Source: a bacterium (GTDB taxonomy: Bacteria > JAAXHH01). From it: DNA of 64,000 nucleotides. Below, one piece after another: positions 20,084 through 36,166 of this stretch; position 1 is the stretch's first letter, and each line of letters starts with the position of its first letter. Made by a program: the position numbers and the translations under genes. Location of the stretch: the NCBI GenBank assembly GCA_965202605.1, contig OZ241838.1:3325008-3389007 (forward strand). The letters run 5' to 3'. The notes beneath the pieces are model-generated. The model was not told where the DNA came from and searched no databases. It saw only the letters and a list, made by a program, of their open reading frames with translations.

Positions 20084-23000
20084 TTACCTCCCTGGACGCC
20101 ATCCTTTACGAACAGCGTTTTCCAACTTGCCGATCTCCCTTCCTATTTCATTCAGTTTCGGGTACAACAGGTGATTGTAGGCAGCCTCTCCGCCAACAAA
20201 AACCAATCCAACCGCTGCCCCAGCCAATAATCCATATGGTCCGCCGTATGCAGATGCAACCAGGTATCCGGTCGCGGTAGATGCGCCGTACCCGGTGAAA
20301 ACGTAAGCGAATTCGCCTACACTGATTCGTCCCTTTTGCATTGCTCGGAAATCATGGAGTATACCCAAAGAAGAAGCAAGCGGACCTACCCTACCCAAGT
20401 GCCTTCTGATAGTCTCCAAGCTTCTATAGATAACCAAGGTTCTTCTACTGCCCATCAAGTCTTGAATTGTCGTGGAGTTCCTATATCTTAGCACCCCTAA
20501 TTCGACAGTAGCTATACCTGCGGACACATACTCACCACCACTACGTACAATGCGCCTTGCTGTGTTCAGGGTTTCAATGTTGAAGTAAGGCGAGCCTTGT
20601 TTTTCAACATCGAACCTGGCACCCCAGGCGCGATCAAACCACAAGTGATTGTAATGACGCTGCCCCCATACGACCACCGGATCCATCTCGTATACATCCA
20701 CCTCTCCGTCACCGTTCTTGTCCTCCCACTCGAGTCCGTATTGGTCAATGCGATTTACCGGATTACTGCCGGTATAGGCATATGCGCTGAATTCAGGATC
20801 TTTCAAGGCCAGCGGGTCTGCTTGCAGGAACCGCAGCGACTCCGATCGGTAAGTCCGAAACGGCATGAAGTCCAGTCTGGATTCTTCATCCCTCTCGTGG
20901 CCGGTGAACTTGAACGGCGTGCTGTCCGTGCCGCTCGAGGCCAGGACCTCTCCGTAGGGCCAGTAGTCGTAGGTGGCGGCAGCCGTGCCGCTTGACGAAA
21001 GCAGTGTTCTCGTGCTTCCCAGATGATCCTTAAGGTAGTAGGAAACCACCCCGCCCGCAACTCTGGCCAGGCGCTCGCCGCCGGCATACACGTAGGCGGC
21101 GGTCAGGTTGCCGGCGCCGTCATAAGTGGCGAGCACGCTGCCGCCCGCGCCCCTGACGTAGTACGTCGTCTGCCCGCCGCCGGCCTTCTTCACGCGGTAG
21201 CCCTCGGCGTCCAGGGTGTACGCGTAGGCGCCGTAGCCGGTGACCAGGCCGCGGTGGTCGTAGGCCATGGCGGTCCCCGCCACCGAGGTGGCCGATCCAT
21301 TGGCATTGTACAGGAAGTAGTCGGTACTTCCGTCTACGATGAGGCTGTCCAGCCGGTTGGGGGTTGAACCGCGCGAGTAGGAATAGGTGGCCGTGTCGCC
21401 GTCGGTCGCGACGTGCGTGATATTGCCGTTGGCGTCGTAGGCGTAGGTCCTGGCGTGGGCGCTGCCCAGGCCCATGGTCTCGAGGCGGTGCAGGCCGTCG
21501 TAGGTATAGGAGGCGGTTTTCAGGGCTTCGGACGCGGTGCGGCGGTAGCGCTGGGAAGTGACGTTGCCCACCGCGTCATACATCTGGCTCAGGGTGAACC
21601 TGCCGGGATAGCTTATCCGGCTCACCCAGTCGCGCACGTTGTATGCGTAGGCGCCGGTGGCCAGGCTGCCGCCGACCGTGTGGGTGCTCATGCGTCCGTC
21701 GCCGTCGTAGCCGTAGGCCGCCAGGGCGCTTCCCTCGGCGTCCGTCACGCCCGCCAGGCGACCCGCCGCATCGTAGGCGTAATGGACCTCGCCGCCGTCT
21801 GGATAGACCATGGCGGTCACCTTGCCGGCCAGGTCGTAGCGATAGCCTATGTCCTTGTCGGGCAGCGTATCGATGGCTACCCGCCGGAGGACGACGCGTC
21901 CTTCGTGGTCGTAGGCGATACGCGTAGCGACCTCGGCCGCGGCGTCGGCATCGGTATTCTGCTCGATCCGCGTGGGACGGCCCACGGGAAAGGTGGCCCG
22001 CACGCCCCATGCGTTCGACGCACCCGATTCGCCCGTATCATAGCTGTACCGGCTCGTCCACGAGGCCGCGTCGGTCTCGAAGGCGTAGGCCCTGTTCGGG
22101 TCGAGCGAGGCGAGGGTCCGCGTCACCTCGCCGGAGCGGACCATGCGGTTGAACCTGTCGTAGGCAAAATAGCTGACCTTGCCGCCTGCGGCCTGCTGCG
22201 CGTCCTGTGAGAAACGCACGTTGTGACGGCTATCGTACTTGTACTTCGTCGTGCCCGCGTCCGGCTGCGTTTTCGAGACCATGTCGCCGTGGGCGTCGTA
22301 GGTATACGTCGTCGCGTCGCCCATGGGCGCGGTGGACCTGACCAGTCGTCCCAGGCCGTCGTAGGCGAAGCGCGTCGTGGTTTCGTCGGTCCCGCCGGAG
22401 TCGGCTACGGCGGCCACGACCTGCCCCCACCTGTCGAAGTGGCTGGTCACGCGTCTTCCGAGCTCGTCGGTGACGGTCTCGAAGCGGTTCTCCATGCTCA
22501 CGCGGGCGAGATCGCCCTTGCCGTATACGATGCTGGAGGAGACGGTCTCTCCGGGCACCGTGACGGTCTTCGTACGCATGAGGGGATCGGCGGCGTAGGC
22601 GGTTCGGGTCGTCCGCGGCGTCACAGGCGCGGTCACGGAATCCGTCCGCGCGGTCGTTACCCCCACGGGCAGGGTCTGCGACACGGGTCTTCCCAGGCCG
22701 TTGTAGGCGGTGTGCGTCACCAGGTCGCGGCCGCCCGTATTGACGCGCTGCTGCATGGGCCTGCTGCTCGCGTCGTAGTAGGCGACGCTCTGCGTGGAGG
22801 CGCCCAGGTAGAGTCCGGCGACGTGGAAACGGCCGCCGCGGCCGCGCAGGGTGAGTTCGGGACGCCAGCCTGAGGGGAAACCGCTACGGCTCGCCCGCGC
22901 GCCCTGGCTCTTCCTGGCGGAGGCGAAGTTGTCGTACCGCATCACCGAGGCGTAGATATCGCCGCCCGCGGTGACGTCGATCTCGCAGGCGTACCACGCC

Positions 23001-23332
23001 AGGGCAGGCGCGTCGAAATCGTCCAGGCCGCTCGCCCGATGCACGCCGTCCTCGTACACCCTGAAGCGGCCTGGGCCGCTGTCGTAGCGTATCTCGAAGG
23101 ACGACTTGCTGCTGCGGGCCGTATCCCGGACCCCGAGGACGACGGGGGTGCTGTCCGCCTGCGTGGTTACGTACACGTCCGCGCGGATGCTCAGGGGCGC
23201 ACCCGATGTGGGCAGGGCATAGCTCCCGTCCGTGCCGATGCGCATGGCCTGCCGGCCGGCGTACCGCACGTCCTCGTCGACGTCGCCGGAGGTGACGGCG
23301 GGCACGCCGAGGTCGGGGTCTATGCCGGCCAC
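20084..23332 (-). CDS. Rhs/YD-repeat protein, 5'-truncated orphan copy with C-terminal variable domain
   Basis: YD repeats throughout, core-terminating DQYGLEWED motif, then about 210-aa C-terminal domain with a Gly-rich hydrophobic segment. DNA homology to the upstream full-length Rhs begins near 23385; no SpvB N-terminus. Confidence 0.75.
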   Translation of the reverse strand: MAGIDPDLGVPAVTSGDVDEDVRYAGRQAMRIGTDGSYALPTSGAPLSIRADVYVTTQADSTPVVLGVRDTARSSKSSFEIRYDSGPGRFRVYEDGVHRASGLDDFDAPALAWYACEIDVTAGGDIYASVMRYDNFASARKSQGARASRSGFPSGWRPELTLRGRGGRFHVAGLYLGASTQSVAYYDASSRPMQQRVNTGGRDLVTHTAYNGLGRPVSQTLPVGVTTARTDSVTAPVTPRTTRTAYAADPLMRTKTVTVPGETVSSSIVYGKGDLARVSMENRFETVTDELGRRVTSHFDRWGQVVAAVADSGGTDETTTRFAYDGLGRLVRSTAPMGDATTYTYDAHGDMVSKTQPDAGTTKYKYDSRHNVRFSQDAQQAAGGKVSYFAYDRFNRMVRSGEVTRTLASLDPNRAYAFETDAASWTSRYSYDTGESGASNAWGVRATFPVGRPTRIEQNTDADAAAEVATRIAYDHEGRVVLRRVAIDTLPDKDIGYRYDLAGKVTAMVYPDGGEVHYAYDAAGRLAGVTDAEGSALAAYGYDGDGRMSTHTVGGSLATGAYAYNVRDWVSRISYPGRFTLSQMYDAVGNVTSQRYRRTASEALKTASYTYDGLHRLETMGLGSAHARTYAYDANGNITHVATDGDTATYSYSRGSTPNRLDSLIVDGSTDYFLYNANGSATSVAGTAMAYDHRGLVTGYGAYAYTLDAEGYRVKKAGGGQTTYYVRGAGGSVLATYDGAGNLTAAYVYAGGERLARVAGGVVSYYLKDHLGSTRTLLSSSGTAAATYDYWPYGEVLASSGTDSTPFKFTGHERDEESRLDFMPFRTYRSESLRFLQADPLALKDPEFSAYAYTGSNPVNRIDQYGLEWEDKNGDGEVDVYEMDPVVVWGQRHYNHLWFDRAWGARFDVEKQGSPYFNIETLNTARRIVRSGGEYVSAGIATVELGVLRYRNSTTIQDLMGSRRTLVIYRSLETIRRHLGRVGPLASSLGILHDFRAMQKGRISVGEFAYVFTGYGASTATGYLVASAYGGPYGLLAGAAVGLVFVGGEAAYNHLLYPKLNEIGREIGKLENAVRKGWRPGR

Positions 23333-23648
23333 GAAGTCGGCGCCGGGCTTCAGGTGCGTGCCCGGGCCCAGGACGATGCGCCGCCACGCTGTGATCCGGC
23401 CTGCAACGTCTCAACACCTCAGACACGATACTGATCTGATCAACGGGTAAAACCGCAGGTCTTTCGTTCTACAACCATGAAAGACAGCATCAGTCGCCGG
23501 GTTATCTCGCTCCAGCCAAGGTGCATTTCGAACAGCAGTCACATATCGAGGATCCACTTTGAAGATTGCGATCTGTGGTCCATGCTTTGGGGCAAGTTCA
23601 AAAACATATCGGTTCGTTGTCCTCTGGACCGAGTCAACTCCACCCGTA

Positions 23649-24146
23649 CTATCTCCATCTGAGGGTATTGAACCCGCGTTTCTTACGTTCGGAGGGAATA
23701 CCTTCCATTCGTCCAAGTATTTGATCCATCTTGGGCATCAACAAACATGTAATGATCAGCTCACCTCCGGATCGCAGTAACAAACGAGCGTAGTAATACT
23801 CCTCCATTGAAAAAAACGTTATCCAACTTCCCTTATCTATGCTAGCGGATCTGTATACAATACAGTGCTCTATATCTTCTGCTTTGAATACCTCTTCCTG
23901 ACCGTTTGTGTATCGTATGATCTCGTTTTCGGTCACCGCATATTCCTCTCCGCGGTTCTTATGCCAGTACTGCAAATGGAGATACAGAGCTGGGAGAAAA
24001 TCTATTAGAAAAACAATACCAAATATGATAGACAAGGATGTATCGAATTCGAACCAGTAAAGTGTCGCTAAAAACAATGCAGGTAGTATAAAAGCGTGAT
24101 GGATTACTATCATGTGGTTGATTGGATTAATCCTGTACCTTTTCAT
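23649..24146 (-). CDS. Small membrane protein, candidate Rhs-toxin immunity protein (paralog of 19243..19728)
   Basis: 165 aa, two N-terminal hydrophobic helices, shared motifs (FGIVFL.DFLP.LYLHLQYW...YYYARLLLRSG) with the 19243..19728 product. Confidence 0.5.
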   Translation of the reverse strand: MKRYRINPINHMIVIHHAFILPALFLATLYWFEFDTSLSIIFGIVFLIDFLPALYLHLQYWHKNRGEEYAVTENEIIRYTNGQEEVFKAEDIEHCIVYRSASIDKGSWITFFSMEEYYYARLLLRSGGELIITCLLMPKMDQILGRMEGIPSERKKRGFNTLRWR

Positions 24147-24503
24147 TACTATACTCCTCCGATATGTTATAGAGTTTCATGTTTTCTTGAACAGTTATTG
24201 GTTCATTCAGGAGTGGTCTTGAATCGCAATTTACAGTTCCTGGTCGACAGGTAGAACAAGGCTGAATGTCATCAATTGCTATCGGTAAAGATATTGGTGT
24301 ATTCGACCCGGGCTGGTTGCCTTCAGCTTTGGAACCAACTCATCTTCGATCAAGCAGTTCGCATTCCAAGTTGGCGAGCAAGTTACGCGCAGGGCTCTGC
24401 CGGGTCAGTCTTCGACAGAGCCCTGGAGGGTCGGAAGCCGATCTACCTGGATCGTACACACAGGCCTCGAAGAAGCTAAGACCTTGGTTGCTTTGGGCGT
24501 TGA

Positions 24504-25085
24504 CTACCTCCTCGAAAGCCAGCCCTTACGGACAGCATTTTCCAAGTTTCCGATCTCCCTACCTATTTGATTTAATTTAGGATACAGATTACTGTAGGCA
24601 GCTTCTCCGCCAACAAAAACCAAACCAACCGCTGCCCCAGCCAATAATCCATATGGTCCGCCGTATGCAGATGCAACCAAGTATCCTGTTGCGGCAGATG
24701 CACCGAATCCCGTAGAAATGTAAGTGAATCTGCCTACACCGATTTTACCAGTTTGCATTGCACGAAAATCAAAAGCCAAACTTAAAACAGAAGTAAAAAG
24801 GCCAACCCTGCCCAAGATCGACCTGGCAGCTCCCAAGTCTCTATACACCGCATACAGCCTGGGTGGGTTGTCTATCAAGTCATCGATCGATGAGAAATTC
24901 CCATACCTACGTACCCCGATTTCGACGGCGCTTATACCAGCGGCTCCATACTCGACTCCGCTACGTACAATGCGCCTTGCTGTGTTCAGGGTTTCAATGT
25001 TAAAGTAAGGAGATCCTTGTATTTCAACGTCGAACCTGGCACCCCATGCGCGATCGAACCACAAGTGATTGTAATGACGCTGCCC
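24504..25085 (-). CDS. Rhs C-terminal variable domain, separated from the Rhs core by an in-frame TAG
   Basis: In frame with the Rhs core at 25086..30071. The codon corresponding to TGG (Trp) in the orphan copy (VVVWGQRHYNHLWFDRAWG) is TAG here. Downstream sequence continues the homology. Confidence 0.5.
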   Translation of the reverse strand, partial: GQRHYNHLWFDRAWGARFDVEIQGSPYFNIETLNTARRIVRSGVEYGAAGISAVEIGVRRYGNFSSIDDLIDNPPRLYAVYRDLGAARSILGRVGLFTSVLSLAFDFRAMQTGKIGVGRFTYISTGFGASAATGYLVASAYGGPYGLLAGAAVGLVFVGGEAAYSNLYPKLNQIGREIGNLENAVRKGWLSRR

Positions 25086-28000
25086 CTATACGACCACGGG
25101 TTCCATCTCGTACACATCCACCTCTCCGTCCCCGTTTTGGTCCTCCCACTCGAGTCCGTACTGGTCGATGCGGTTTATCGGATTACTGCCGGTATAGGCA
25201 TATGCGCTGAATTCAGGATCTTTCAAGGCCAGCGGGTCGGCCTGCAGGAACCGCAGCGACCCCGACCGGTAAGTGCGGTACTGCATGAAGTCCAGTCCGG
25301 ACTCTTCGTCCCGCTCGTGTCCGGTGAACTTGAACGGTGCACTGTCCGTGCCGCTCGAGGCCAGGACCTCTCCGTAGGGCCAGTAGTCGTAGGTGGCGGT
25401 AGCCGTGCCGCTTGACGAAAGTAGCGTTCTCGTGCTGCCCAGATGATCCTTAAGGTAGTAGGAAACCACCTCTCCCGCAACGCTGACCAGCCTGTCGCCG
25501 CCGGCATACACGTAGGCGGCGGTCAGGTCCCCGGCGGCATCATAGGTGGCGAGCACGTTTCCGCCCGCGCCCCGGATGTAGTACACGGTGTTCCCGCCGC
25601 CGACCTTCTTCACGCGGTAGCCCTCGGCGTCCAGGGTGTACGCATAGGCGCCGTACCCGTTGACCAGGCCGCGGTGATCGTAGCTCATGGCGGTCCCCGC
25701 CACCGAGGTGGCCGAACCGTTGGCGTTGTACGAAAAACGCTCCGTCACGCTCCCCTTGGCGATGCTGTCCAGCCTGTTGGGGGTTGAACCGCGCGAGTAG
25801 GCATAGGTGGCCGTGTCGCCGTCGGTCGCGACGTGCGTGATATTGCCGTTGTCGTCGTAGGCGTAGGTCCTGGAGCGGGTGGCGCCCAGGCCCATGGTCT
25901 CGAGGCGGTGCAGGCCGTCGTAGGTATAGGAGGCGGTCTTGAGGGGTTCGGTGGCCGCGCGCCGGTAGTTCTGCGAAGTGACGTTGCCCACCGCGTCGTA
26001 GGCCTGGTCGAGCGTGAACCTGCCGGGATAGCTTATCTCACTTACCCAGTCGCGCACGTTGTATGCGTAGGCGCCGGTGGCCAGGGTACCGCCGACCGTG
26101 TGGGCGCTCATGCGTCCGTCGCTATCGTAGGCGTAGGTCGCCAGGGCGCTTCCTTCGGCGCCTGTCACGCCTGCCAGACGGCCTGCCGCATCGTAGGCGT
26201 AATGGACCTCGCTACCGTCGGGATAGACCATGGCGGTCACCTTGCCGGCCAGGTCGTAGCGATAGGCCATGTCCTTGTCGGGCAGCGTATCGATGGCTAC
26301 CCGCCGGAGGATGACGCGTCCCTCGTGGTCGTAGGCGATGCGCGTAGTGACCTCGGCCGCGGCGTCGGCGTCGGTGTTCTGCTCGATCCGCGTAGGACGG
26401 CCGACAGGCCAGGTGGCCCGCACGCCCCATGCGTTCGACGCGCCCGATGCGTCGATATCGTAGATATACCGGCTTGTCCACGAGGCCGCGTCGGTCTCAA
26501 AGGCATAGGCCCTGTTCGCGTCGAGCGACGCGAAGGTCCGCGTCACCTCGCCGGAGCGGACCATGCGGCCAAACTTGTCATAGGTAAAGTAGCTGACCTT
26601 GCGGCCTGCGGCCTGCTGCGCGTCCTGGGAGAAGCGCACGTTGTGACGGCTATCGTACTTGTACTTCGTAGTTCCCGCGTCCGGCTGCGTCTTCGAGACC
26701 ATGTCGCCGTGGGCGTCGTAGGTATACGTCGTCACGTCGCCCATGGGCGCGGTTGACCTGATCAGCCGTCCCAGGCCGTCGTAGGCGAAGCGGGTGGTGG
26801 TCTCGTCGGTCCCGCCGGAGTCGGCGACGGCGGCGACGACCTGCCCCCACCTGTCGAAGTGGCTGGTCACGCTCTTGCCCAGTTCGTCGGTGACGGTCTC
26901 GTAGCGGTTCTCCACGCTCACGCGGGTGAGATCGCCCTTGCCGTATACGATGTTGGAGGAGACGCTCTCTCCCGGCGCCGTGACGGTCTTCGTGCGCATG
27001 AGGGGATCGGCGGCGTAGGTTGTCCGGGTCGTCCGCGGCGTCACAGGCGCAGATACGGCGTCCGTCCGCGCGGTGGATACGCCCACGGGCAGGGTCTGCG
27101 ACACGGACCTTCCCATGCCATTGTAGGTGGTGTGCGTCACCAGGTCGCGGCCCCCGGTGACGACGCGCCGTTGCATGGGCCTGCTGCTGGCGTCGTAGTA
27201 GGCGACGCTCTGCGTGGAGGACCCCAGGTAGAGTCCGGCGACGTGGAACCGTCCGCCGCTGCCGCGCAGGGTGAGCTCGGGACGCCAGCCTGAGGGGAAC
27301 CCGCTGCGGCTCGCCCGCGCGCCCTGGCTCTTCCGGCCTGAGGCGAAGTTGTCGTACCGCATCACCGAGGCGTAGATATCGCCGCTCGCGGTGATGTCGA
27401 TCTCGCAGGCGTACCACGCCAGGCTCGGCGCGTCGAAATCGTCCAGGCCGCTCGCCTGGCGCACGCCGTCCTCGTAGACCCTGAAGCGGTCCGCGCCCGC
27501 GTCGTAGCGTATCTCGAAGGACGCGTTGCTGCTGCGGGCCGTATCGCGGACCCCGAGGACGACGGGCGTGCTGCCGGTCTGCGTCGATAGGTACACGTCG
27601 GCGCGGATGCTCAAGGGCGCGCCGGTAGTGGGCAGGCTATAGGTTCCGTCCGTGCCGATGCGCATGGCCTGCCGGCCGTCGAGCCGCACGTCCTCGTCGA
27701 CATCGCCCGCAGTGACGGCGGGCACGCCGAGGTCGGGGTCCACCCCGGCTGTGAATTCGGCGCCGGGCTTCAGGTGCGTGCCCGGGCCCAGTACGATGCG
27801 CTCCCTGGCACGGAGCGTCACGGCGGCGCCGGGCTCGGCCGTCAGGCCGGCATTAAAATCGATGGCGTCCGCCTCGTAGCGCATCTCCTCTCCGTCGCTC
27901 ACCGTCACCTGCGCGTCGAAGTCCAGCAGGGGAATAAGCCGTTCATGCAGCGGATACCCTTGCGGGTCGACGTAGGCCGCCGAGGCGATCCGGTTGGGGT

Positions 28001-30071
28001 CCGTTTTCGCATAGGTGCCGTCGTTCTCGTGGCGGGACCACGCGGTGAGCCGCCGCGCGGTGATCCGGCCCATGCCGTCCTCGGAGAGGAAGGCCGAGCC
28101 GAGAGGATCCCTGAAATAGCGCCTTGCGACGCCGTTGGCGTCCTGCATGGCGGTGACGGCCAGGTTCGCTGGGTCGTACGTGACAAGCGAGGTGGGCAGG
28201 GCCGACGCGGGATATACGCGCACGTTGTCGATGAACAGGCGGCCGCTGGCAACATCGTTGCGGAAGAGGACCCGGTCGGGCATAGAGGCGGACGTCAGGT
28301 CGTAGTAGCCGGTCTTCGGATAGCGGACGCCGTCGACCCGGGCGAACCAGCGCCGCGCGGATGAGTTGGTGGTGTCCCACTCCAGGCGGACGTGGTGCCA
28401 GCGGTTGACGCGGTAGGCGGTGTGGAGCGCTTCAGGCGTCCGGCTTCCGTTGTCGTGAACGCCGAAGGTGCCGTCGGCCTTCAGATCGAACCCCAAAACC
28501 GTTCTCGCGCCCGACGACAGGGTAACGGCGGAGTGGTCCGCGTTGCTGTCCAGCATCACGTCGCATTCGAACACGCCTGCCCCGAGCGCCGGGACGGTAA
28601 GCCTGAGCGCCTGATCGTTCGCGCTGCCGAGTGCCCTCAGCACGCCGTCTTCAAGCGCTACGCGGGCCGGACTAGCGGACGACCAGTCCGGGGTGGCCAG
28701 GAGCGCCGCGGCGTCCTCGTAGTCGTCGAAGACGTAGGCTCGGACCTGCGACGACCTCGTGTTGGCGAAGGCGGCCACTGGCGCGAGTCTGTCGTAGCCC
28801 CATACGGAGGTTTCCACGGTCCCTGCCGCGTCCTTTATCTCGATGGGCTGTCCCTCCGGCGTGAAACTCAGGACTTCCTGTTCCAGACGCCTGCCGGACG
28901 GCGTGCCGCCGTAGGTTTTCTGCACCTTAAAATTCGTGCCGTAGTCGAATTCTGCATGATCCAGGATGCCGCCGCCGTGGTCTTTGACCGTGACTGCCGC
29001 CGGCTTGTCCCAGATACGCCGGGCGTCGGTCATGATCTCGTACTCCGGGTCGGAAGCGGCATCGGGTAGGAGGATGACCTCGATATCCCTGGCGTAGCCC
29101 TGAACGTGCCACCTGGCCGCCCCGTCCATCGGCTTCGGGGTGAGTGCGCTGATCGTCACTTCGAGCAACGCCCTGGGCGACACGCCGGCGGCGTGTCGCG
29201 GCACGGCGATTTCCTCGTCGAAGGCTAACTCGCCGTTCGCAACCTGGCCGGAGAAACCACCGACGTACGTGGATCTGCCGTTCAGTCCCGGCCAGATGAG
29301 CCTGACCGCCACCGAGCCTGAGGGTCCGCCCGTACCCGTTGCGGGACCCAGCACATCGCGAAGGCCCGTCTTGCCCCGGACCCTGACGTAAGGGTCGGCA
29401 ACGTCGAACGCCGTGGAGCGGAAGCGGACGCTGAGCGTACTCTCCTTGACGACGGCCGGGGTTGCCGTGGCCTCGGCCCAGAGTTCCTGAAGGCCCGTGA
29501 GGTTCCCGGACCAGTCGTAGACGCCCGTGGAATCGGAGGCGGCTACGCTGTCCCAGGCATAGTCCGCCTTCGCGTTCTCCACGCTGGTGATCTCGGCGTA
29601 GGTCCGTATGCCCGTCGGCGCCGCGCTCGGATCGGCGGAACTGTGCAGCGTCACCCGCATGTAGCCCGAGCGCACGCGGTCGGGCACGACGAGGGTGGTA
29701 TCCACGGTCATCCGGACCGTCGCCGTCGGCGCGGTGAAGATCTCGTCCGCGATGATCGAGACGGGCGAAGAAGGCGCGTCCCACACGATCTCGACCTTTG
29801 CTGTGCCGTACAGGTCCGTACCGGTGCCGGACACCTTGTCGAGCCCGACCGTACCCACGATCTCGAGTCTCGGACTGGTGAGCCGGAACCTGTCGCTCTC
29901 GTACACCGCGGTTACCAGGTTCTCCTTGTTGTCGTTCTGCCCGTTCGCCCGGGTCCACACCCGGCTTCTGCCGGTCGCGGACCGGTTGTAATCGAAGTCG
30001 CCCCTGGGTGTCTCCCAGGGACGGCGGGTCGTCTGACCAGTCGTACGGCTGGTCCTGGCTGTCGGCGCCAC
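25086..30071 (-). CDS. Rhs/YD-repeat protein core
   Basis: 1661-aa ORF rich in YD repeats. C-terminal about 1080 aa nearly collinear with the orphan copy at 20084..23332. Upstream SpvB-like segment is in a different frame; ends with stop at 25086-25088. Confidence 0.8.
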   Translation of the reverse strand: MAPTARTSRTTGQTTRRPWETPRGDFDYNRSATGRSRVWTRANGQNDNKENLVTAVYESDRFRLTSPRLEIVGTVGLDKVSGTGTDLYGTAKVEIVWDAPSSPVSIIADEIFTAPTATVRMTVDTTLVVPDRVRSGYMRVTLHSSADPSAAPTGIRTYAEITSVENAKADYAWDSVAASDSTGVYDWSGNLTGLQELWAEATATPAVVKESTLSVRFRSTAFDVADPYVRVRGKTGLRDVLGPATGTGGPSGSVAVRLIWPGLNGRSTYVGGFSGQVANGELAFDEEIAVPRHAAGVSPRALLEVTISALTPKPMDGAARWHVQGYARDIEVILLPDAASDPEYEIMTDARRIWDKPAAVTVKDHGGGILDHAEFDYGTNFKVQKTYGGTPSGRRLEQEVLSFTPEGQPIEIKDAAGTVETSVWGYDRLAPVAAFANTRSSQVRAYVFDDYEDAAALLATPDWSSASPARVALEDGVLRALGSANDQALRLTVPALGAGVFECDVMLDSNADHSAVTLSSGARTVLGFDLKADGTFGVHDNGSRTPEALHTAYRVNRWHHVRLEWDTTNSSARRWFARVDGVRYPKTGYYDLTSASMPDRVLFRNDVASGRLFIDNVRVYPASALPTSLVTYDPANLAVTAMQDANGVARRYFRDPLGSAFLSEDGMGRITARRLTAWSRHENDGTYAKTDPNRIASAAYVDPQGYPLHERLIPLLDFDAQVTVSDGEEMRYEADAIDFNAGLTAEPGAAVTLRARERIVLGPGTHLKPGAEFTAGVDPDLGVPAVTAGDVDEDVRLDGRQAMRIGTDGTYSLPTTGAPLSIRADVYLSTQTGSTPVVLGVRDTARSSNASFEIRYDAGADRFRVYEDGVRQASGLDDFDAPSLAWYACEIDITASGDIYASVMRYDNFASGRKSQGARASRSGFPSGWRPELTLRGSGGRFHVAGLYLGSSTQSVAYYDASSRPMQRRVVTGGRDLVTHTTYNGMGRSVSQTLPVGVSTARTDAVSAPVTPRTTRTTYAADPLMRTKTVTAPGESVSSNIVYGKGDLTRVSVENRYETVTDELGKSVTSHFDRWGQVVAAVADSGGTDETTTRFAYDGLGRLIRSTAPMGDVTTYTYDAHGDMVSKTQPDAGTTKYKYDSRHNVRFSQDAQQAAGRKVSYFTYDKFGRMVRSGEVTRTFASLDANRAYAFETDAASWTSRYIYDIDASGASNAWGVRATWPVGRPTRIEQNTDADAAAEVTTRIAYDHEGRVILRRVAIDTLPDKDMAYRYDLAGKVTAMVYPDGSEVHYAYDAAGRLAGVTGAEGSALATYAYDSDGRMSAHTVGGTLATGAYAYNVRDWVSEISYPGRFTLDQAYDAVGNVTSQNYRRAATEPLKTASYTYDGLHRLETMGLGATRSRTYAYDDNGNITHVATDGDTATYAYSRGSTPNRLDSIAKGSVTERFSYNANGSATSVAGTAMSYDHRGLVNGYGAYAYTLDAEGYRVKKVGGGNTVYYIRGAGGNVLATYDAAGDLTAAYVYAGGDRLVSVAGEVVSYYLKDHLGSTRTLLSSSGTATATYDYWPYGEVLASSGTDSAPFKFTGHERDEESGLDFMQYRTYRSGSLRFLQADPLALKDPEFSAYAYTGSNPINRIDQYGLEWEDQNGDGEVDVYEMEPVVV

Positions 30072-32232
30072 CGAGCGGAAGCGGATAGAAGGTCTCGGTG
30101 GTTCGATAGCCCGGGATCTCCTCCCGTTCCACCAGGCCGTTTATCGGGTTGTAGCGGTACCTCGTGGTGGCGGTTACGCCGTCCGTGGTCTCGGACGTCT
30201 CGGTCCGCCGCACCCGGAAGCTCTGTTTTTTGGCGCCGCCGTGATAGATCATGTTGTTGAAGTGGCCCGACGTATCTACCGCCCAGGTGTTTTCCAGCCT
30301 GCCCACCTCCCCGCCGGTTGCCGTGTATCGGATCTCCTCCTCGAGCAGCCCGCGCCACATGCGCCGCTGCGCCTTGCCCAGGTCGCTCGTGGCGGGCGCC
30401 AGGCCAAGCCGGTCCACGTCCGCCTCGCTCACGAACTCCCGCCGGATCCTGCCGTAGGACGTGCCGTCCCGGTCCACGATGCGCTCCTCCACCCAGGGAT
30501 ACGTCACGGCTTCGACTGGACCGCTTCCGAACCGCCAGAGGTCGGCTGTATCCGGGTAGACGTACCAGGTGGACGCGGCCGGCGTTCCGGCGTCGCCGTC
30601 GTCGTCCACGTCGCGCCGGGAGACGCGGTACGCGTATTCGTCGTACTTCTTCGCGAGGTGGGACGAATCGGGCCGCGCGTGCGCCGACGTGGTAGCCCGT
30701 TCATAGGTAATGGCCATGGTCCGGCCCGTGGGGTACTTTACGCTGGTAAGGCGGTACTTGTACGACGGGGCGTAGTCGAAGTCATAGGAAGGCAGAGGCG
30801 CCCTGCCCTTCCCCTTTACCGTCACCGAAGAAAGCAGCAGAAGGTTCTGCCGCTGATGTTGTTCGAGAGAATCGGACACGGCATAGGGTTCAGGTTTCAG
30901 ACGGTTTGGTTCGAAAGCAAAGTCGATCGTCGTGATGGTCCGTCCGGCGCCGTCCTCGACCGTTATGCTTCTCAGCCGCCTCGTGGTTTCGATGCCGTCC
31001 AGCGACCGGAACAGGAAGGGGTGGTAGAGTTCCTGCGGGGACCGGTAGAGATTCCCGTTGGGCATGGCGGCGATCATCTCCTGCGCGGTGGGAATCCGGA
31101 CCTGCCCTATGGTCGAGTCCGCCACGACCGAGTTGGTGGCGAAGTCGTAATAGTTATTCCCGTTGGAAAACGAATTGCCGGCGAGCGGCAGGTCCTCCGA
31201 TCGCTCCGTCGCGGCAAAAGTCACCCGGCTCACCAGGTCTCCGGCGGGGTTGTGAAAACGGACCTCCGCCAGATGCGACGTCTGGGAGGTCTTGACCACC
31301 GTATACTCGGTGCTGGCTGATCCGATGCGCGGGTCCAGGTCGCCTGCGCTTATCCTGTTCGGGAAGCTGTTGAAGACCTGGCTTCTCTCCTGGTTGGTGC
31401 GCACGGTGGTCACCGGCTTGTCCGCCTCGTATCGGAAGTAGACGGTATTGCCCTGCGGATCCCTGATGGAGGCGAGATTCCACTGGTATACGAAGCTCCT
31501 GTTCAGCCAGCCGGAGACGATGACGGTCTCTCCCCGCAAGTCTGTTTCGGAGCCGAACGCCATGGCTTCCGTGGTGAGGTTGGCCCCGTATCCGTCAGCG
31601 GGGCCGAAGGTATAGACGTTTCCCGACAGGTCTGTCGCGGTCCAGGTCGATGTCAGCGAATCCTCATTCGCCCACCTGATGTCCCAGAACTGCCGGCGCT
31701 CGACGAAGAACCGGTTGGTGAGCGATGCGTTAGTTCCGCCCGATTCCTTCTGACGGATGAGCGGGTGGTACCCGCCGGGCAGCACCAGGGCCATGTCGTA
31801 CTCGTTAGGGTTGTTGGTGATCCACTCGCCCTGGCCCGGCTCCGTCGTATTGTAGCCGCCGATGACCTTGACCGCTCCCACGGTGAGGTTCCAACCCAGG
31901 CCCGCCCATGAAGGCTGGTTGAGCGTGTAGGTGGCTTTGCCGTCCGCGACGTTCCCCCGCAGGAGCCGGTCCGGCCCCGCGATGCCGCTGCTGTATTCGA
32001 GGGCCAGCGGCCAGGACAGGTCTCCGGAACCGGCCACCGTGGCCAGCGGCAGCGAGAAGGACCAGTCGCCGGTGAAGTAGTCCACCCGGTCCGCCTCCAG
32101 GGTGCTTTGAAGGTGCTCGAAATCATAGGCCCCGTGGGTCAGCTGCCCGGTCGCCGCCTGTCCGGAGGCGGAAAGGACGCCGATCATCAGCGCCAGGGCG
32201 GCAAGCAGCCGTATGGCAAACGGGCCAGTCAT
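30000..32232 (-). CDS. SpvB-like N-terminal region of the Rhs protein, with Sec-type signal peptide; frameshifted relative to the Rhs core
   Basis: ORF 28927..32451 is meaningful from the ATG at 32232 (MTGPFAIRLLAALALMIGVLSASGQA) to about 30000 (...DWSDDPPSLGDTQG), with SpvB-like LALEYSS and GLGWNL motifs. Beyond that it becomes Arg-rich out-of-frame read-through of the Rhs core. Confidence 0.6.
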
Positions 32233-33002
32233 GCTGAAATTCTTACTTGCCGGTGATATTGGCGATGTGTTTTGAATTGCTTCCGCCGCATTATGGTCCC
32301 GGTACGGGAACGATGCGCGGACGCAAGGCGCCGCCCCTCCCCTCCGGTCCTTGCCGCGGCCGGATGTGCGTGATTGTGATGCGTCGTGCGATGTAGGGTG
32401 TGTGCGGACGTGCATGGCTCCCCTGCCTTTCTGTTCGATCAGAAGTAGCACGGGGACGCTCGAGGTCCGCGGGGTGCGGGTCCGCTAAGGGACGCGAGGG
32501 TATTCTGATGCGGTGGTAATGCTCTCGCTCAGGCGGCACGCGTGAGCGAAATGACAATACGAAGATTACAACATTACGATACTATGATATTGCGTTCCTA
32601 CCGATTTACCGGACTGAACCCTCCTTTCGTGAGCGATCCGAATCGTGAGCGATCTGAAACGGATCACGCGTCCATGTTACGTGCGTGACCGCACACAACG
32701 ATATACTATACGTATGTTTAGTTAATGTGTCAAGAGCAAAAATGAAAAAACGCCTTTCAGGACGAAAAGCCCGTTCCGTATCCCGCGCTTACCGGATGGT
32801 ATGGATGCCACAAAGGGGATTGCGCAAGTTCCGACGCGGAATTAGATTTGACAGGAACTCCGAAGTCCCGGGGATCGTATGAATATCGTCGGTGCGCGAC
32901 TGACGCGGATGTCGGTCGAACCGCTGAATCCGATCGTTGTTTTCGTGATCCCCTCTACGAATTCAGCCGTCCGGTACGAAGAGTGGTGCGAGGATCCGCC
33001 CC

Positions 33003-33851
33003 ATGCATCCCACGCCTCTGACCGAATCCCAGCGGCGGTCCTTTGAGGAGGACGGTTACCTGATCGTCCGTAACGCGCTGGACCCCGTGGAAATCGAAGT
33101 GCTGACGGAGACGGGCGACCGGCTCATGGAAGGCTTCGAGTACCCCGGCTTCTATGCCCATCGCCGTCCCGGTCTCGTGCAGGAGCGGCCCTTCCTGGAT
33201 CTCGTCACGAACGAGCGCACGGTCCCGCTGATCGTGGCCCTCCTCGGCTTCAACATCCATATCACGAACACGGCGCTCATCCACAAGCACCCAGAGGCGC
33301 CCGGGGATACCGACCAGGTCAACTGGCACCGCGACGTGGGCGTTTCGCTGGACGTCGGCCACGTGGTGCTGCCCCTCGTCGGCCTGAAGATCGGCTATTG
33401 CCTGACGGATTTCCCCGGTCCGGACACAGGGGCGACGATGTTCGTGCGGGGCAGCAACAACATGAAGTCCGCGCTGCCGATACGAAAGGGCCAGATCCAT
33501 CCGGACGAATACGTACAGCCGGTCCTGCGGGCCGGCGACGCCTTCCTCTTCGAAAACCGGACCTACCACGCGGCCGGACTGAATTTCACGAAAGAGACCG
33601 CCAGGGTCGTCATCTACGGCTACCACTACCGGTGGATCAAGCCGGACCACTACATGCGCTTCTACAATGATGAGACGCAGCCCGATGCCGGCCTGCTCGC
33701 AGCTACCGACGACATCGGACGCCAACTACTGGGCGCCACGGTGGACTCACAGGGCCGCGAGGCGCCGGACGGCATCGACTGGCCCATCCGGGAATGGGCC
33801 GAACGGCACGGAATGGATGTAGCCCAGGACGTGCATACCATAGAAGCCTGA
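33003..33851 (+). CDS. Phytanoyl-CoA dioxygenase (PhyH) family protein
   Basis: PhyH-like sequence (HxD...H Fe-binding pattern context); paralogous in type to 3822..4601 and 53329..54102. Confidence 0.65.
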   Translation: MHPTPLTESQRRSFEEDGYLIVRNALDPVEIEVLTETGDRLMEGFEYPGFYAHRRPGLVQERPFLDLVTNERTVPLIVALLGFNIHITNTALIHKHPEAPGDTDQVNWHRDVGVSLDVGHVVLPLVGLKIGYCLTDFPGPDTGATMFVRGSNNMKSALPIRKGQIHPDEYVQPVLRAGDAFLFENRTYHAAGLNFTKETARVVIYGYHYRWIKPDHYMRFYNDETQPDAGLLAATDDIGRQLLGATVDSQGREAPDGIDWPIREWAERHGMDVAQDVHTIEA

Positions 33852-33956
33852 GAAGCCTGATCCAGGCGACCTGATAAACCGGCGTTTGCAAACCGGACTT
33901 TTGCAAATGGATCAGGTCCGACAGACCGGCTCCACACCCGAACCGGACGAGATGCC

Positions 33957-34682
33957 ATGTACCTGAAGCACATGCTTCCCCATCAACTGCGCGAGGCAGT
34001 GGAACGGGACGATCCGCTGCTGGTCCCTGCCGGTTGCATCGAGACCCACGGACCGCACATGGCCATCGGTCACGATACGATCATCGTGGAAGAGATCTGC
34101 GCGCGGGTGGCGGAGCACCTGGACGTGGTCATCTCTCCGCCCTTCGACTTCGGTCCCACCGGTTACGCCCTCGGCGGCCCCGAGGACGGCACCATCGATC
34201 CGGACTATGCAGCTTTCGGGTCGTTCGTGAAGTCCATTCTACGCAACTTCCTGGAGATGGGCTTCCAGCGTGTCTACGTGATGATCATGCACCAGGGCAT
34301 GGAGGCACCCCTGGTGCTGGCCTTCAAGAAGGCCGCGGCGGAGTTGTCCTTCGAAATGGTCCTGGCCGATGGCAATCCGCGGGGATGGTGGGCAGACGCC
34401 AGCATGTCCAGGGAATCCCGCCAGTTCGGCCGGGTCCAGGTGCACCCCATGATCCTGCCGGCGGCCTCACCCCCGGCCGGCGGCGACCACGCCGGGTACA
34501 ACGAGACCTCCTTCCTGCTGGCCACGCGCCCCGAACTGGTGGACCAGGGCCGCCTGGACGAGAACGCGCCGTGGTACTGCCGGCAGGAGGAAGACCGGAA
34601 CAGCTGGACCGCCAATGCCGCTCACGGGGATGCCATGGTGGAAGCGGTCGTGGGCGCGTGGGTCGAGATGTTGAAGGATTAG
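33957..34682 (+). CDS. Creatininase-family amidohydrolase
   Basis: CIETHGPHMAIGHD motif region typical of the creatininase family. Confidence 0.65.
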   Translation: MYLKHMLPHQLREAVERDDPLLVPAGCIETHGPHMAIGHDTIIVEEICARVAEHLDVVISPPFDFGPTGYALGGPEDGTIDPDYAAFGSFVKSILRNFLEMGFQRVYVMIMHQGMEAPLVLAFKKAAAELSFEMVLADGNPRGWWADASMSRESRQFGRVQVHPMILPAASPPAGGDHAGYNETSFLLATRPELVDQGRLDENAPWYCRQEEDRNSWTANAAHGDAMVEAVVGAWVEMLKD

Positions 34683-34770
34683 TGGTAGCGGTCGAGAGCG
34701 CGTGGACCGAGATATTAAAGGGTTAGTGGAAGCGGTCGCGAGCGCACGGATCGAGATGTTGCGGCGTTAA
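34638..34770. repeat. Three tandem copies of about 44 bp spanning the creatininase 3' end, each ending in a stop codon
   Basis: Copies at 34638-34682 (...gttgaaggattag), 34683-34726 (...attaaagggttag) and 34727-34770 (...gttgcggcgttaa). Encode VVGAWVEMLKD*, VVAVESAWTEILKG* and VEAVASARIEMLRR*. Confidence 0.85.
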
Positions 34771-34877
34771 TCGATCGAAACACCAGTAAGGGCCGACTGT
34801 TACGCGGCTACCGGATAAGCCGCCGCGCATTACCGTATCTGAGTTTAACAGCTAATCATCGTGGAAAGGAGCAATCC

Positions 34878-35588
34878 ATGCGGTCCATTTTCGTCGGCAT
34901 CGAATACGCCGGCAAGTCCACCCTCATCGATCTGCTGGACGCCTACTACCAGAAACGTCGGCGCCGGACGCATCTCGACGATCACTTCACCATCCCGGAC
35001 GCGTCCCTGAGTCCCACGTCCCGGGCGCAGTACGTCCACTACCCCGACGACGTGAAGGAACGCATGCAGCGGATGCAGCTCCACTACCACGTGGAGGTCA
35101 TCCGGAACTACCCCCATACGCTGATCGCGGGCTGGCATATCGAGGAAGCCATCTACTGCGACGTGTACGGCAACGTGGCGGGGAACCCGTACTATCCCAA
35201 CTACGTCCACCACAACCAGCGGCACTACGAGGTGCTGGTGCTGGAAGCCCGGCTGCCCGACGTCGTGCTGATCCACCTCACGGCCGACGACGAGGCGATC
35301 CGGGAACGCATGCGCACCGATCCCCACGAGTACCAGATCATCGACGAAAAGGATATACCGGATCTCAAGAAACGCTTCGAGGACGAGGTCGACCGGTCGC
35401 TCCTTACGCGCAACGGCCACCTCGTCACGCTGGATACGACCGAAAAGTCGCCGGAGGAGTCGCTGGACGAATTGCTGCTGAAGACCGATCCGATCGTGAC
35501 CGACGGGGAACTGGCCATGCGGGCCATGCCGGTGCCCGAAGGGGATTACGAGGTCCAGTACGAGAACAGGGTAAGGAAGATGGTGTGA
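34878..35588 (+). CDS. P-loop NTPase, kinase-like, hypothetical
   Basis: Walker A-like GIEYAGKST near the N-terminus. No confident family. Confidence 0.45.
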   Translation: MRSIFVGIEYAGKSTLIDLLDAYYQKRRRRTHLDDHFTIPDASLSPTSRAQYVHYPDDVKERMQRMQLHYHVEVIRNYPHTLIAGWHIEEAIYCDVYGNVAGNPYYPNYVHHNQRHYEVLVLEARLPDVVLIHLTADDEAIRERMRTDPHEYQIIDEKDIPDLKKRFEDEVDRSLLTRNGHLVTLDTTEKSPEESLDELLLKTDPIVTDGELAMRAMPVPEGDYEVQYENRVRKMV

Positions 35589-35705
35589 AGCTCGATGGAT
35601 GGCAGGAACCAGTGCACATCTTTTACTGGCTGATTCAGATTTGGTTACGAGATTGCCGACTTGATATCGACTAACTCGGTATGGAACTGAAACGACGTTC
35701 TCAGG

Positions 35706-35945
35706 TTGGTTTATTCAGGCCGGCAAATGGAACACCACATGAAGACTGATCCTAATAAGACAACTTTGAATGAGCATCTTAATGCGAGGCTAAATCGCGA
35801 TGCCGGTGTCGTTGTGCATGATTCAATAGATGGCGAACTCGGTTTACTCTACGATGCTGCGGACAATACCGTTTGGCTCTGTTGGAAGGAAAATGGGAGT
35901 ATTTACATGGAGGATAATCCCTGCTCAGTCAAGGAGCCGGCATGA
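35706..35945 (+). CDS. Hypothetical small protein in a low-GC patch
   Basis: 79-aa ORF with AT-richer composition than surroundings; stop overlaps the start of the next small ORF (ATGA). Confidence 0.3.
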   Translation: MVYSGRQMEHHMKTDPNKTTLNEHLNARLNRDAGVVVHDSIDGELGLLYDAADNTVWLCWKENGSIYMEDNPCSVKEPA

Positions 35946-36166
35946 GTGAGAGCGAATGGTTACCTCCGTTAATAACGGTGGTTGGTGCTGCTATTGTTGG
36001 ATTCGCCGGACTGGTTGCTGGTTGGCTGTTTTTCGTTCGTGGGAATATGGCCACCAAGAATGATATCAATGGCATTAACAAAACAATTCACGATATGAAT
36101 ACTCTATTGGGTAACGTAGAGGGTAAAGTCAGTATTCATGATTTGAAATTGGTTGAAAGAAACTGA
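35942..36166 (+). CDS. Hypothetical small membrane protein in a low-GC patch
   Basis: 74 aa with one hydrophobic helix (LITVVGAAIVGFAGLVAGWLFF). Translationally coupled to the upstream small ORF. Confidence 0.3.
   Translation: MSESEWLPPLITVVGAAIVGFAGLVAGWLFFVRGNMATKNDINGINKTIHDMNTLLGNVEGKVSIHDLKLVERN

Follow-up and report, generated by a model that had tools for sequence, protein, structure and literature searches.

A 44-nt tandem array spanning the stop codon of a creatininase-family gene

Gene neighbourhood and anatomy of the array

The window, a 64-kb stretch of bacterial DNA that was analysed as a whole, carries a PhyH-family gene, a creatininase-family gene and a P-loop gene in the same orientation, and the 3′ end of the second of these is repeated in tandem (Table 1). 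The creatininase-family product matched the Pfam profile Creatininase PF02633 with an E-value of 1.2e-35 and a score of 123.5 bits against a gathering cutoff of 31.3, residues 8–237 aligning with profile positions 5–236; because the match reaches position 236 of the 238 in the profile, the first repeat unit is the genuine C-terminus of the protein and no extension of it. Homologues of this protein numbered 302, the closest of which are likewise 241 aa long; the exact protein was absent from the contig index searched, and the nearest database proteins were at most 90% identical. The product of the P-loop gene gave sub-threshold Pfam matches alone (AAA_18, E 0.002; thymidylate kinase, E 0.16) and, judged from its sequence, appears to be an uncharacterised kinase-like protein; it is highly conserved (89–97% aa identity among the closest relatives), and its gene follows the creatininase gene in 32 of 157 loci, nearly all of the closest relatives included.

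Table 1. Positions of the array, of the genes around it and of further gene-end repeats in the window
Feature	Position	Strand	Remarks
PhyH-family gene	33003–33851	+	directly upstream of the creatininase-family gene
PhyH end repeat	33843–33860	+	last 9 nt with stop (GAAGCCTGA) duplicated perfectly, ×2
Creatininase-family gene	33957–34682	+	241 aa; last 14 codons and stop TA form unit 1
Unit 1	34638–34681	+	GTGGAAGCGGTCGTGGGCGCGTGGGTCGAGATGTTGAAGGATTA; coding; own frame VEAVVGAWVEMLKD, then stop
Unit 2	34682–34725	+	non-coding copy, 2 nt off the gene frame; own frame VVAVESAWTEILKG, then stop
Unit 3	34726–34769	+	non-coding copy; own frame VEAVASARIEMLRR, then stop; flanking base A34770 completes TAA
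Spacer after the array	34770–34877	+	alignable to the spacer of L007, which has a further insertion of ~20 nt
P-loop gene	34878–35588	+	236 aa; co-oriented; motif GIEYAGKST
2OG-Fe(II) oxygenase gene	52089–53177	+	Pfam DIOX_N and 2OG-FeII_Oxy
2OG oxygenase end repeat	53160–53218	+	last 18 nt (with TGA) plus 7 nt, giving 25 nt ×2.4

The array (34638–34769) consists of three ungapped 44-nt units placed head to tail, which share 36, 35 and 34 of their 44 bases in pairwise comparison (77–82%). Tandem Repeats Finder (TRF) reported it as the top-scoring array in the window, with a period of 44, 2.8 copies, 81% matches and a score of 171. A degenerate 35-nt pattern allowing up to three mismatches matched these three units alone in the window and nothing in 100 shuffles, and a rough binomial estimate over 64 kb and ~90 periods put the chance of finding two adjacent 44-mers with at least 34/44 bases in common at ~3e-5. 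The sequence-only reading from which this analysis started had reported three tandem units of about 44 bp at the end of the creatininase gene, with the stops tag, tag and taa; reading and dissecting the array base by base confirmed that description.

Duplication took in the last 14 codons plus TA, starting at the GTG codon of Val228 and ending two bases into the stop codon. Unit 1 alone is in frame with the creatininase-family ORF, and with 44 equal to 3 × 14 + 2, units 2 and 3 fall out of its frame; the frames, once checked, agreed with the earlier view of these two units as untranslated duplicates of the C-terminus. The three stops lie at 34680–34682 (TAG), 34724–34726 (TAG) and 34768–34770 (TAA). 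A stop closes every unit: the TA with which a unit ends is followed by either the G of the next unit or the flanking A. The description of each copy as carrying its own stop codon therefore holds as far as the presence of the stops goes, but not as a designed feature: the third base is borrowed, and each unit has its stop simply as a consequence of the position of the duplication boundaries. Since the first junction still ends the protein at its normal length, the enzyme is unchanged by the duplication.

The same boundaries automatically create a TAGTG sequence at the junctions, in which the stop overlaps a GTG, so that 14-codon mini-ORFs exist in a formal sense. Read-through of the first TAG meets a second TAG one codon on. 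No slippery heptamer or comparable site was seen on reading the last codons, and no microhomology is visible at the present boundaries of the array.

Elsewhere in the window, ~14 kb (18896–32987) are absent from four relatives (L007, L011, L017 and L005), in which an acetyltransferase gene is closely followed by the PhyH gene. This segment holds two very large RHS-repeat/DUF6443 ORFs on the minus strand (20084–23332 and 25086–30071) and another long, overlapping ORF (28927–32451), and from its ORF content it looks like an RHS/YD-type toxin island. The gene for a GAF-domain histidine kinase (14204–17029) contains an 18-nt tandem repeat of 4.3 copies and 98% identity at 16384–16461; this repeat is in frame, and a six-residue protein repeat is therefore encoded. 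A run of minus-strand ORFs at 41239–48343, obtained by a greedy longest-ORF call, has a third-position GC of 0.41–0.44 against ~0.8 in confident genes; the region may hold real genes on the other strand or in another frame, or it may be a compositionally different block, maybe a foreign one.

Copy number and sequence decay among related loci

We searched 163 loci, namely six encoding contigs and 157 more loci from species-representative genomes and metagenomes; 157 of the loci searched include the 3′ end of the creatininase gene. The sequence-only reading had advised a search for the same repeat in orthologues, and this search found one locus with an extra tandem copy among the 157 orthologous loci, that of the closest relative, L007; the window has three units, L007 two and the other 155 loci one each. 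L007 is a MAG labelled Candidatus Latescibacterota (JAJEHX010000010.1) with 95% aa and 91–93% nt identity to the window; its two units (3682–3769) have 40 of 44 bases in common (89–91%). An nhmmer profile built from the five units gave three matches in the window, two in L007 and one in each of 31 other loci, where the single matches were taken to be the loci's own gene tails. Neither the pattern nor nhmmer revealed dispersed copies of the unit elsewhere in the 64-kb window or in the 163 loci. Copy number thus varies between one, two and three among related genomes, and relative to the common state the array is an insertion. Its tandem unit of a length within ~10–100 bp, its copy number differing between genomes and its local origin are those of a minisatellite, or VNTR.

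These comparisons bear on whether the array is an artefact of assembly or the scar of a mobile element that integrated or excised with the 3′ end of the gene, a pair of explanations that we regard as highly improbable. Repeats can be mis-assembled, but the copies here differ at 18–23% of positions where collapsed or expanded repeats would be identical, and two units occupy this site in L007, a MAG assembled independently; an assembly artefact therefore looks unlikely. As for a scar, duplication of a target gene's 3′ end is common among integrative elements, as seen at their attL and attR sites, and it leaves the gene itself intact with a second copy of its 3′ end downstream, as here; the region downstream of the operon is, moreover, variable among relatives. 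In contrast to such sites, the 44-nt units are perfectly head to tail in exact periodicity with no element or other DNA between them, and they carry lineage-specific bases of the resident allele; an unsystematic look at the adjacent region showed no integrase beside the array.

The shared bases in question are GTG for GTC, GAA for GAG, G[AG]GC for CGAT, and GAGAT, a set that is common to all five units (three in the window and two in L007) and that separates them from most single-copy orthologue tails. The units therefore arose by local duplication within the lineage and not from imported alleles. Unit 3 has a 3′ end (GCGGCGTTA) like the tails of L005 and of the consensus, and AAGG[GA]TTA is common to units 1 and 2 and both units of L007, a distribution to be read with the shortness of the units in mind, since 44 nt are too few to order the events or to tell orthology from re-homogenisation of the L007 pair.

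The extra units have lost residues on which the gene itself has hardly varied. Among 18 distinct tails of close orthologues, V228, A230, V231, A234 and W235 are invariant and V232 and V236 nearly so (Val in 17 of the 18 at both positions), and the Trp is present in the gene tail of all 157 loci. Read in its own frame, unit 2 carries the replacements V232E and V236T and unit 3 the replacements V232A and W235R, the latter putting Arg in place of Trp. Of the private changes in units 2 and 3, counted by hand, 2 of 12 fall at third positions, as against 20 of 37 minimal changes in the orthologue tails (Fisher P = 0.043, a test that rests on 12 changes). Replacements at invariant residues together with the lack of a third-position bias mean that the extra units are without coding constraint. 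They also bear out the suggestion of the sequence-only reading that the copies represent a decaying duplication, and units 2 and 3 appear to be decaying neutrally. As an alternative C-terminus they do not qualify, being out of frame and altered at invariant positions.

A further suggestion was that slippage across the units might swap the C-terminal tail. In mechanical terms this would work: by sequence logic, exchange between equivalent positions deletes exactly 44 nt and keeps both the frame and the stop, and the unit ends do look mosaic, with TTGAAGG in unit 1 of the window and unit 2 of L007 and TTAAAGG in unit 2 of the window and unit 1 of L007. As a reservoir from which unequal recombination would draw new versions of the last 14 residues, however, the array would hold variants that damage the protein, one lacking the universally conserved Trp and the other with Glu and Thr where nearly all close orthologues have Val; the changes in the extra units look unconstrained, the copies number two to three at most, and neither a recombinase nor an invertible element accompanies the array. 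We therefore hold this role to be very unlikely.

Units 2 and 3 differ from unit 1 by 18–20%, and third-position divergence between the window and L007 is 13–16%. Since the divergence of the units is at least as large as that between the two genomes, the array is not recent; on this comparison it may be old, and its long persistence could hint at retention.

Spacer length and searches for RNA or regulatory signals

Most close relatives have 37–52 nt between the creatininase stop and the P-loop start; the window has 195 nt and L007 174 nt. In the window, 107 nt separate the end of the last unit from the P-loop gene. The remaining part of the spacer differs in L007, where TRF found a 19-nt tandem duplication of 2.1 copies (GTAAGGGGCCGG...) after the array (3832–3871) that is absent from the window. 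A Shine-Dalgarno-like sequence, GGAAAGGAG, lies at 34863–34871 and is conserved as GAAAGGAGC in all five aligned sequences. In the window, the spacer motif GGCCGACTGTTACGCGGCTACC downstream of the array has no second occurrence, and the spacer after the array folds no better than its shuffles (z +1.73). The sole demonstrated effect of the extra units is the lengthening of the intra-operon spacer, from a few tens of bases to 195.

Given its position in a transcribed spacer between co-oriented genes, the array could in principle be a structured RNA, a terminator or an attenuator in the 3′ UTR or intercistronic region, and an RNA element in the 3′ UTR had indeed been proposed from the sequence. 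The searches went against this proposal. An Rfam scan of 33500–36000 gave no match even at E ≤ 10; folding compared with dinucleotide shuffles revealed no excess of stability for 34620–34880 (z −0.24), for the array itself (z −0.44) or for the L007 array (z −1.08); and neither sigma-70-like promoters nor intrinsic-terminator-like sites were found in 33800–35800. By Rfam, folding and terminator scan alike, the array does not have the marks of a structured RNA or an intrinsic terminator. Two relatives, L005 and L017, do hold a hairpin in this spacer, followed in L005 by a U-run, but it lies further downstream and falls outside the repeat. Taking both sides together, we give an RNA role for the array hardly any credence.

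The hairpins of these two relatives are imperfect and occupy 3754–3812 in L005 and 3787–3848 in L017 (z −1.98 in L017), between the creatininase and P-loop genes; with its U-run, the L005 hairpin is terminator-like. In L005, 14 nt of the hairpin's 3′ arm nearly copy the gene tail (GAAGCGGTCGTGGA), a match that none of 2,000 shuffles equalled. We looked for older degenerate tail copies in the long spacers of L005, L017, L088, L008, the window and L007, and L005 alone was significant; as its match forms a hairpin arm, the idea was set aside. L009 and L012 were borderline in the same relic-copy test (P about 0.05), which their 16-nt arrays account for. An attenuator in which the gene tail would compete with an arm of the spacer hairpin was likewise considered and dropped, there being no structural signal in the window.

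A different possibility is that the added length itself is under selection, the array serving as a spacer or as an expression-tuning VNTR that uncouples or modulates the downstream gene. The contrast in spacer length with most close relatives would fit such a role, as would the repeated expansion of spacers by tandem units at both junctions of the operon in different relatives, since recurrence could reflect selection for longer spacers and not mutation alone. The GTG-initiated mini-ORFs that the TAGTG junctions give in principle could also be brought in, and there is a precedent in Mycobacterium tuberculosis, where a correlation was reported between fpg1 expression and the length of VNTR3239, which lies upstream of Mtb-fpg1 (PMC2734929). 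Against this stand several observations. The unit sequences show no conservation that common descent would not account for; promoter, terminator and structure were searched for and none was detected; and in the aligned relatives the downstream gene still has a strong Shine-Dalgarno sequence of its own. Unit lengths and sequences vary by lineage, as random events would give, and alike duplications occur at an unrelated gene. On balance we consider a tuning role unlikely, and from the missing signal we infer that the extra units lack a function.

Stop-spanning duplications at other genes and their significance

The 44-nt array is one case of a repeated phenomenon in this organism and its relatives, the duplication of gene 3′ ends across their stops. 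In the window, the PhyH-family gene and an unrelated 2OG-Fe(II) oxygenase gene likewise end in repeats that contain the stop codon (Table 1). The oxygenase gene is overlapped by a longer minus-strand ORF (51705–53528) that has no Pfam match and is probably spurious. A further repeat, of 15 nt in 2.2 copies (33876–33907), lies wholly inside the spacer between the PhyH and creatininase genes.

Among relatives, both junctions of the operon are affected. In the PhyH–creatininase spacer, the last 12 nt of the PhyH gene, with its TGA, are the first of a series of tandem 12-nt units; TRF counted 3.7 copies in L014 and 5.5 in L002, and by eye there are ~2 in L011, L012, L013 and L017 and ~5 in L001. 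L015 has a 36-nt array of 2.3 copies just past the PhyH stop, and L007 an in-frame 9-nt duplication within the end of the PhyH gene. The creatininase stop is spanned by units of 16–17 nt in L009 (3.8–4.6 copies), L012, L003, L016 and L018, and an 18-nt array of two copies extends across the stop of the third gene in L014. Altogether, the stop-spanning or near-stop units of the window and its relatives measure 9, 12, 16–17, 18, 25, 36 and 44 nt. Unit lengths and sequences that differ between lineages are what independent mutational events would be expected to produce.

We compared the array with known systems. Extra stop codons placed shortly downstream of the real one are known as tandem, or back-up, in-frame stops. 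The array resembles them in having additional stops near a gene end, and the 12-nt arrays in the PhyH spacer of relatives do repeat TGA in frame; the stops of units 2 and 3, in contrast, are out of the gene frame and are present because the unit includes the TA of the stop.

Closer parallels are found among mycobacterial intergenic repeats. The closest described one that we found is in M. tuberculosis, where ETR-F, or VNTR3239, sits between rnc and fpg1, and this spacer measures a few bp in related species and 279–358 bp of 55/79-bp repeats in the M. tuberculosis complex (PMC2734929). Both there and here, head-to-tail units of tens of bases lie between co-oriented genes, copy number varies between genomes, and a gap that is small in relatives (a few bases there, a few tens here) is expanded in one sub-lineage. 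The two differ in that the 44-nt unit is recognisable as the last 14 codons and part of the stop of the upstream gene, that it is present in two to three copies already 18–23% diverged, and that the variation observed is one between closely related species-level MAGs and not one between strains.

The MIRU elements of Supply et al. (1997), in the accounts of that work given in PMC2734929 and PMC12548453, are intercistronic sequences of 40–100 bp with reading frames that overlap adjoining genes at their stop and start codons; the same accounts describe them as a dispersed family with 41 loci in H37Rv and as presumably mobile, with start codons as insertion sites. The 44-nt unit is likewise intercistronic, and its TAGTG junction overlaps a stop with GTG. 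Unlike MIRU, it was found at a single place in 64 kb and, in relatives, at the orthologous place; it stems from the gene next to it and keeps no reading frame, 44 being no multiple of 3. A MIRU-like element was accordingly rejected as a candidate, neither dispersal (in the 64-kb window and the loci of the relatives) nor in-phase coupling of ORFs having been found. Set beside these systems, the array works like a bacterial minisatellite or VNTR in an operon spacer and is a new instance of a known phenomenon; a literature search for stop-codon-spanning tandem duplications in prokaryotes turned up no dedicated paper among those listed.

Taking these lines of evidence together, the array is probably a locus-specific minisatellite that arose by tandem duplication and has been tolerated since its first copy ends the gene. 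In the mechanism that we propose, replication slippage or unequal exchange would have copied the 44-nt segment two more times. Units that start with G, placed after TA, recreate TAG at the junctions, so that the protein stays intact and the event would be selectively tolerated. More generally, short tandem duplications would arise everywhere, and selection would purge most of those within genes; in a compact genome, the survivors would be those confined to spacers or those spanning the 3′ end of a gene including its stop. A surplus copy would then decay into spacer DNA, and the array could grow or shrink further.

A bolder reading is that stop-spanning duplication is a favoured route by which the clade labelled Latescibacterota/Gemmatimonadota, which looks sponge-associated, builds and resizes intra-operon spacers from coding sequence, copy number tuning the translational coupling or the expression of the downstream gene. 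It is prompted by the recurrence of such duplications at three genes of the window and at both operon junctions in many relatives, although the relatives were sampled at this operon alone, an ascertainment bias that bears on any hotspot claim, and we rate it as a long shot.

Read as a tolerated duplication, the array itself matters little; it would be a neutral scar that leaves the enzyme as it was. For annotation it calls for caution, and it should not be taken for a regulatory RNA, a recoding site or a mis-assembly. Its value lies in offering a clean, datable example of a non-coding intra-operon spacer born from coding sequence, and arrays of this kind might be used as VNTR markers to type strains of these uncultured bacteria. 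That neighbouring and unrelated genes as well as relatives show this signature suggests that spacers in this lineage grow to a large extent by tandem duplication.
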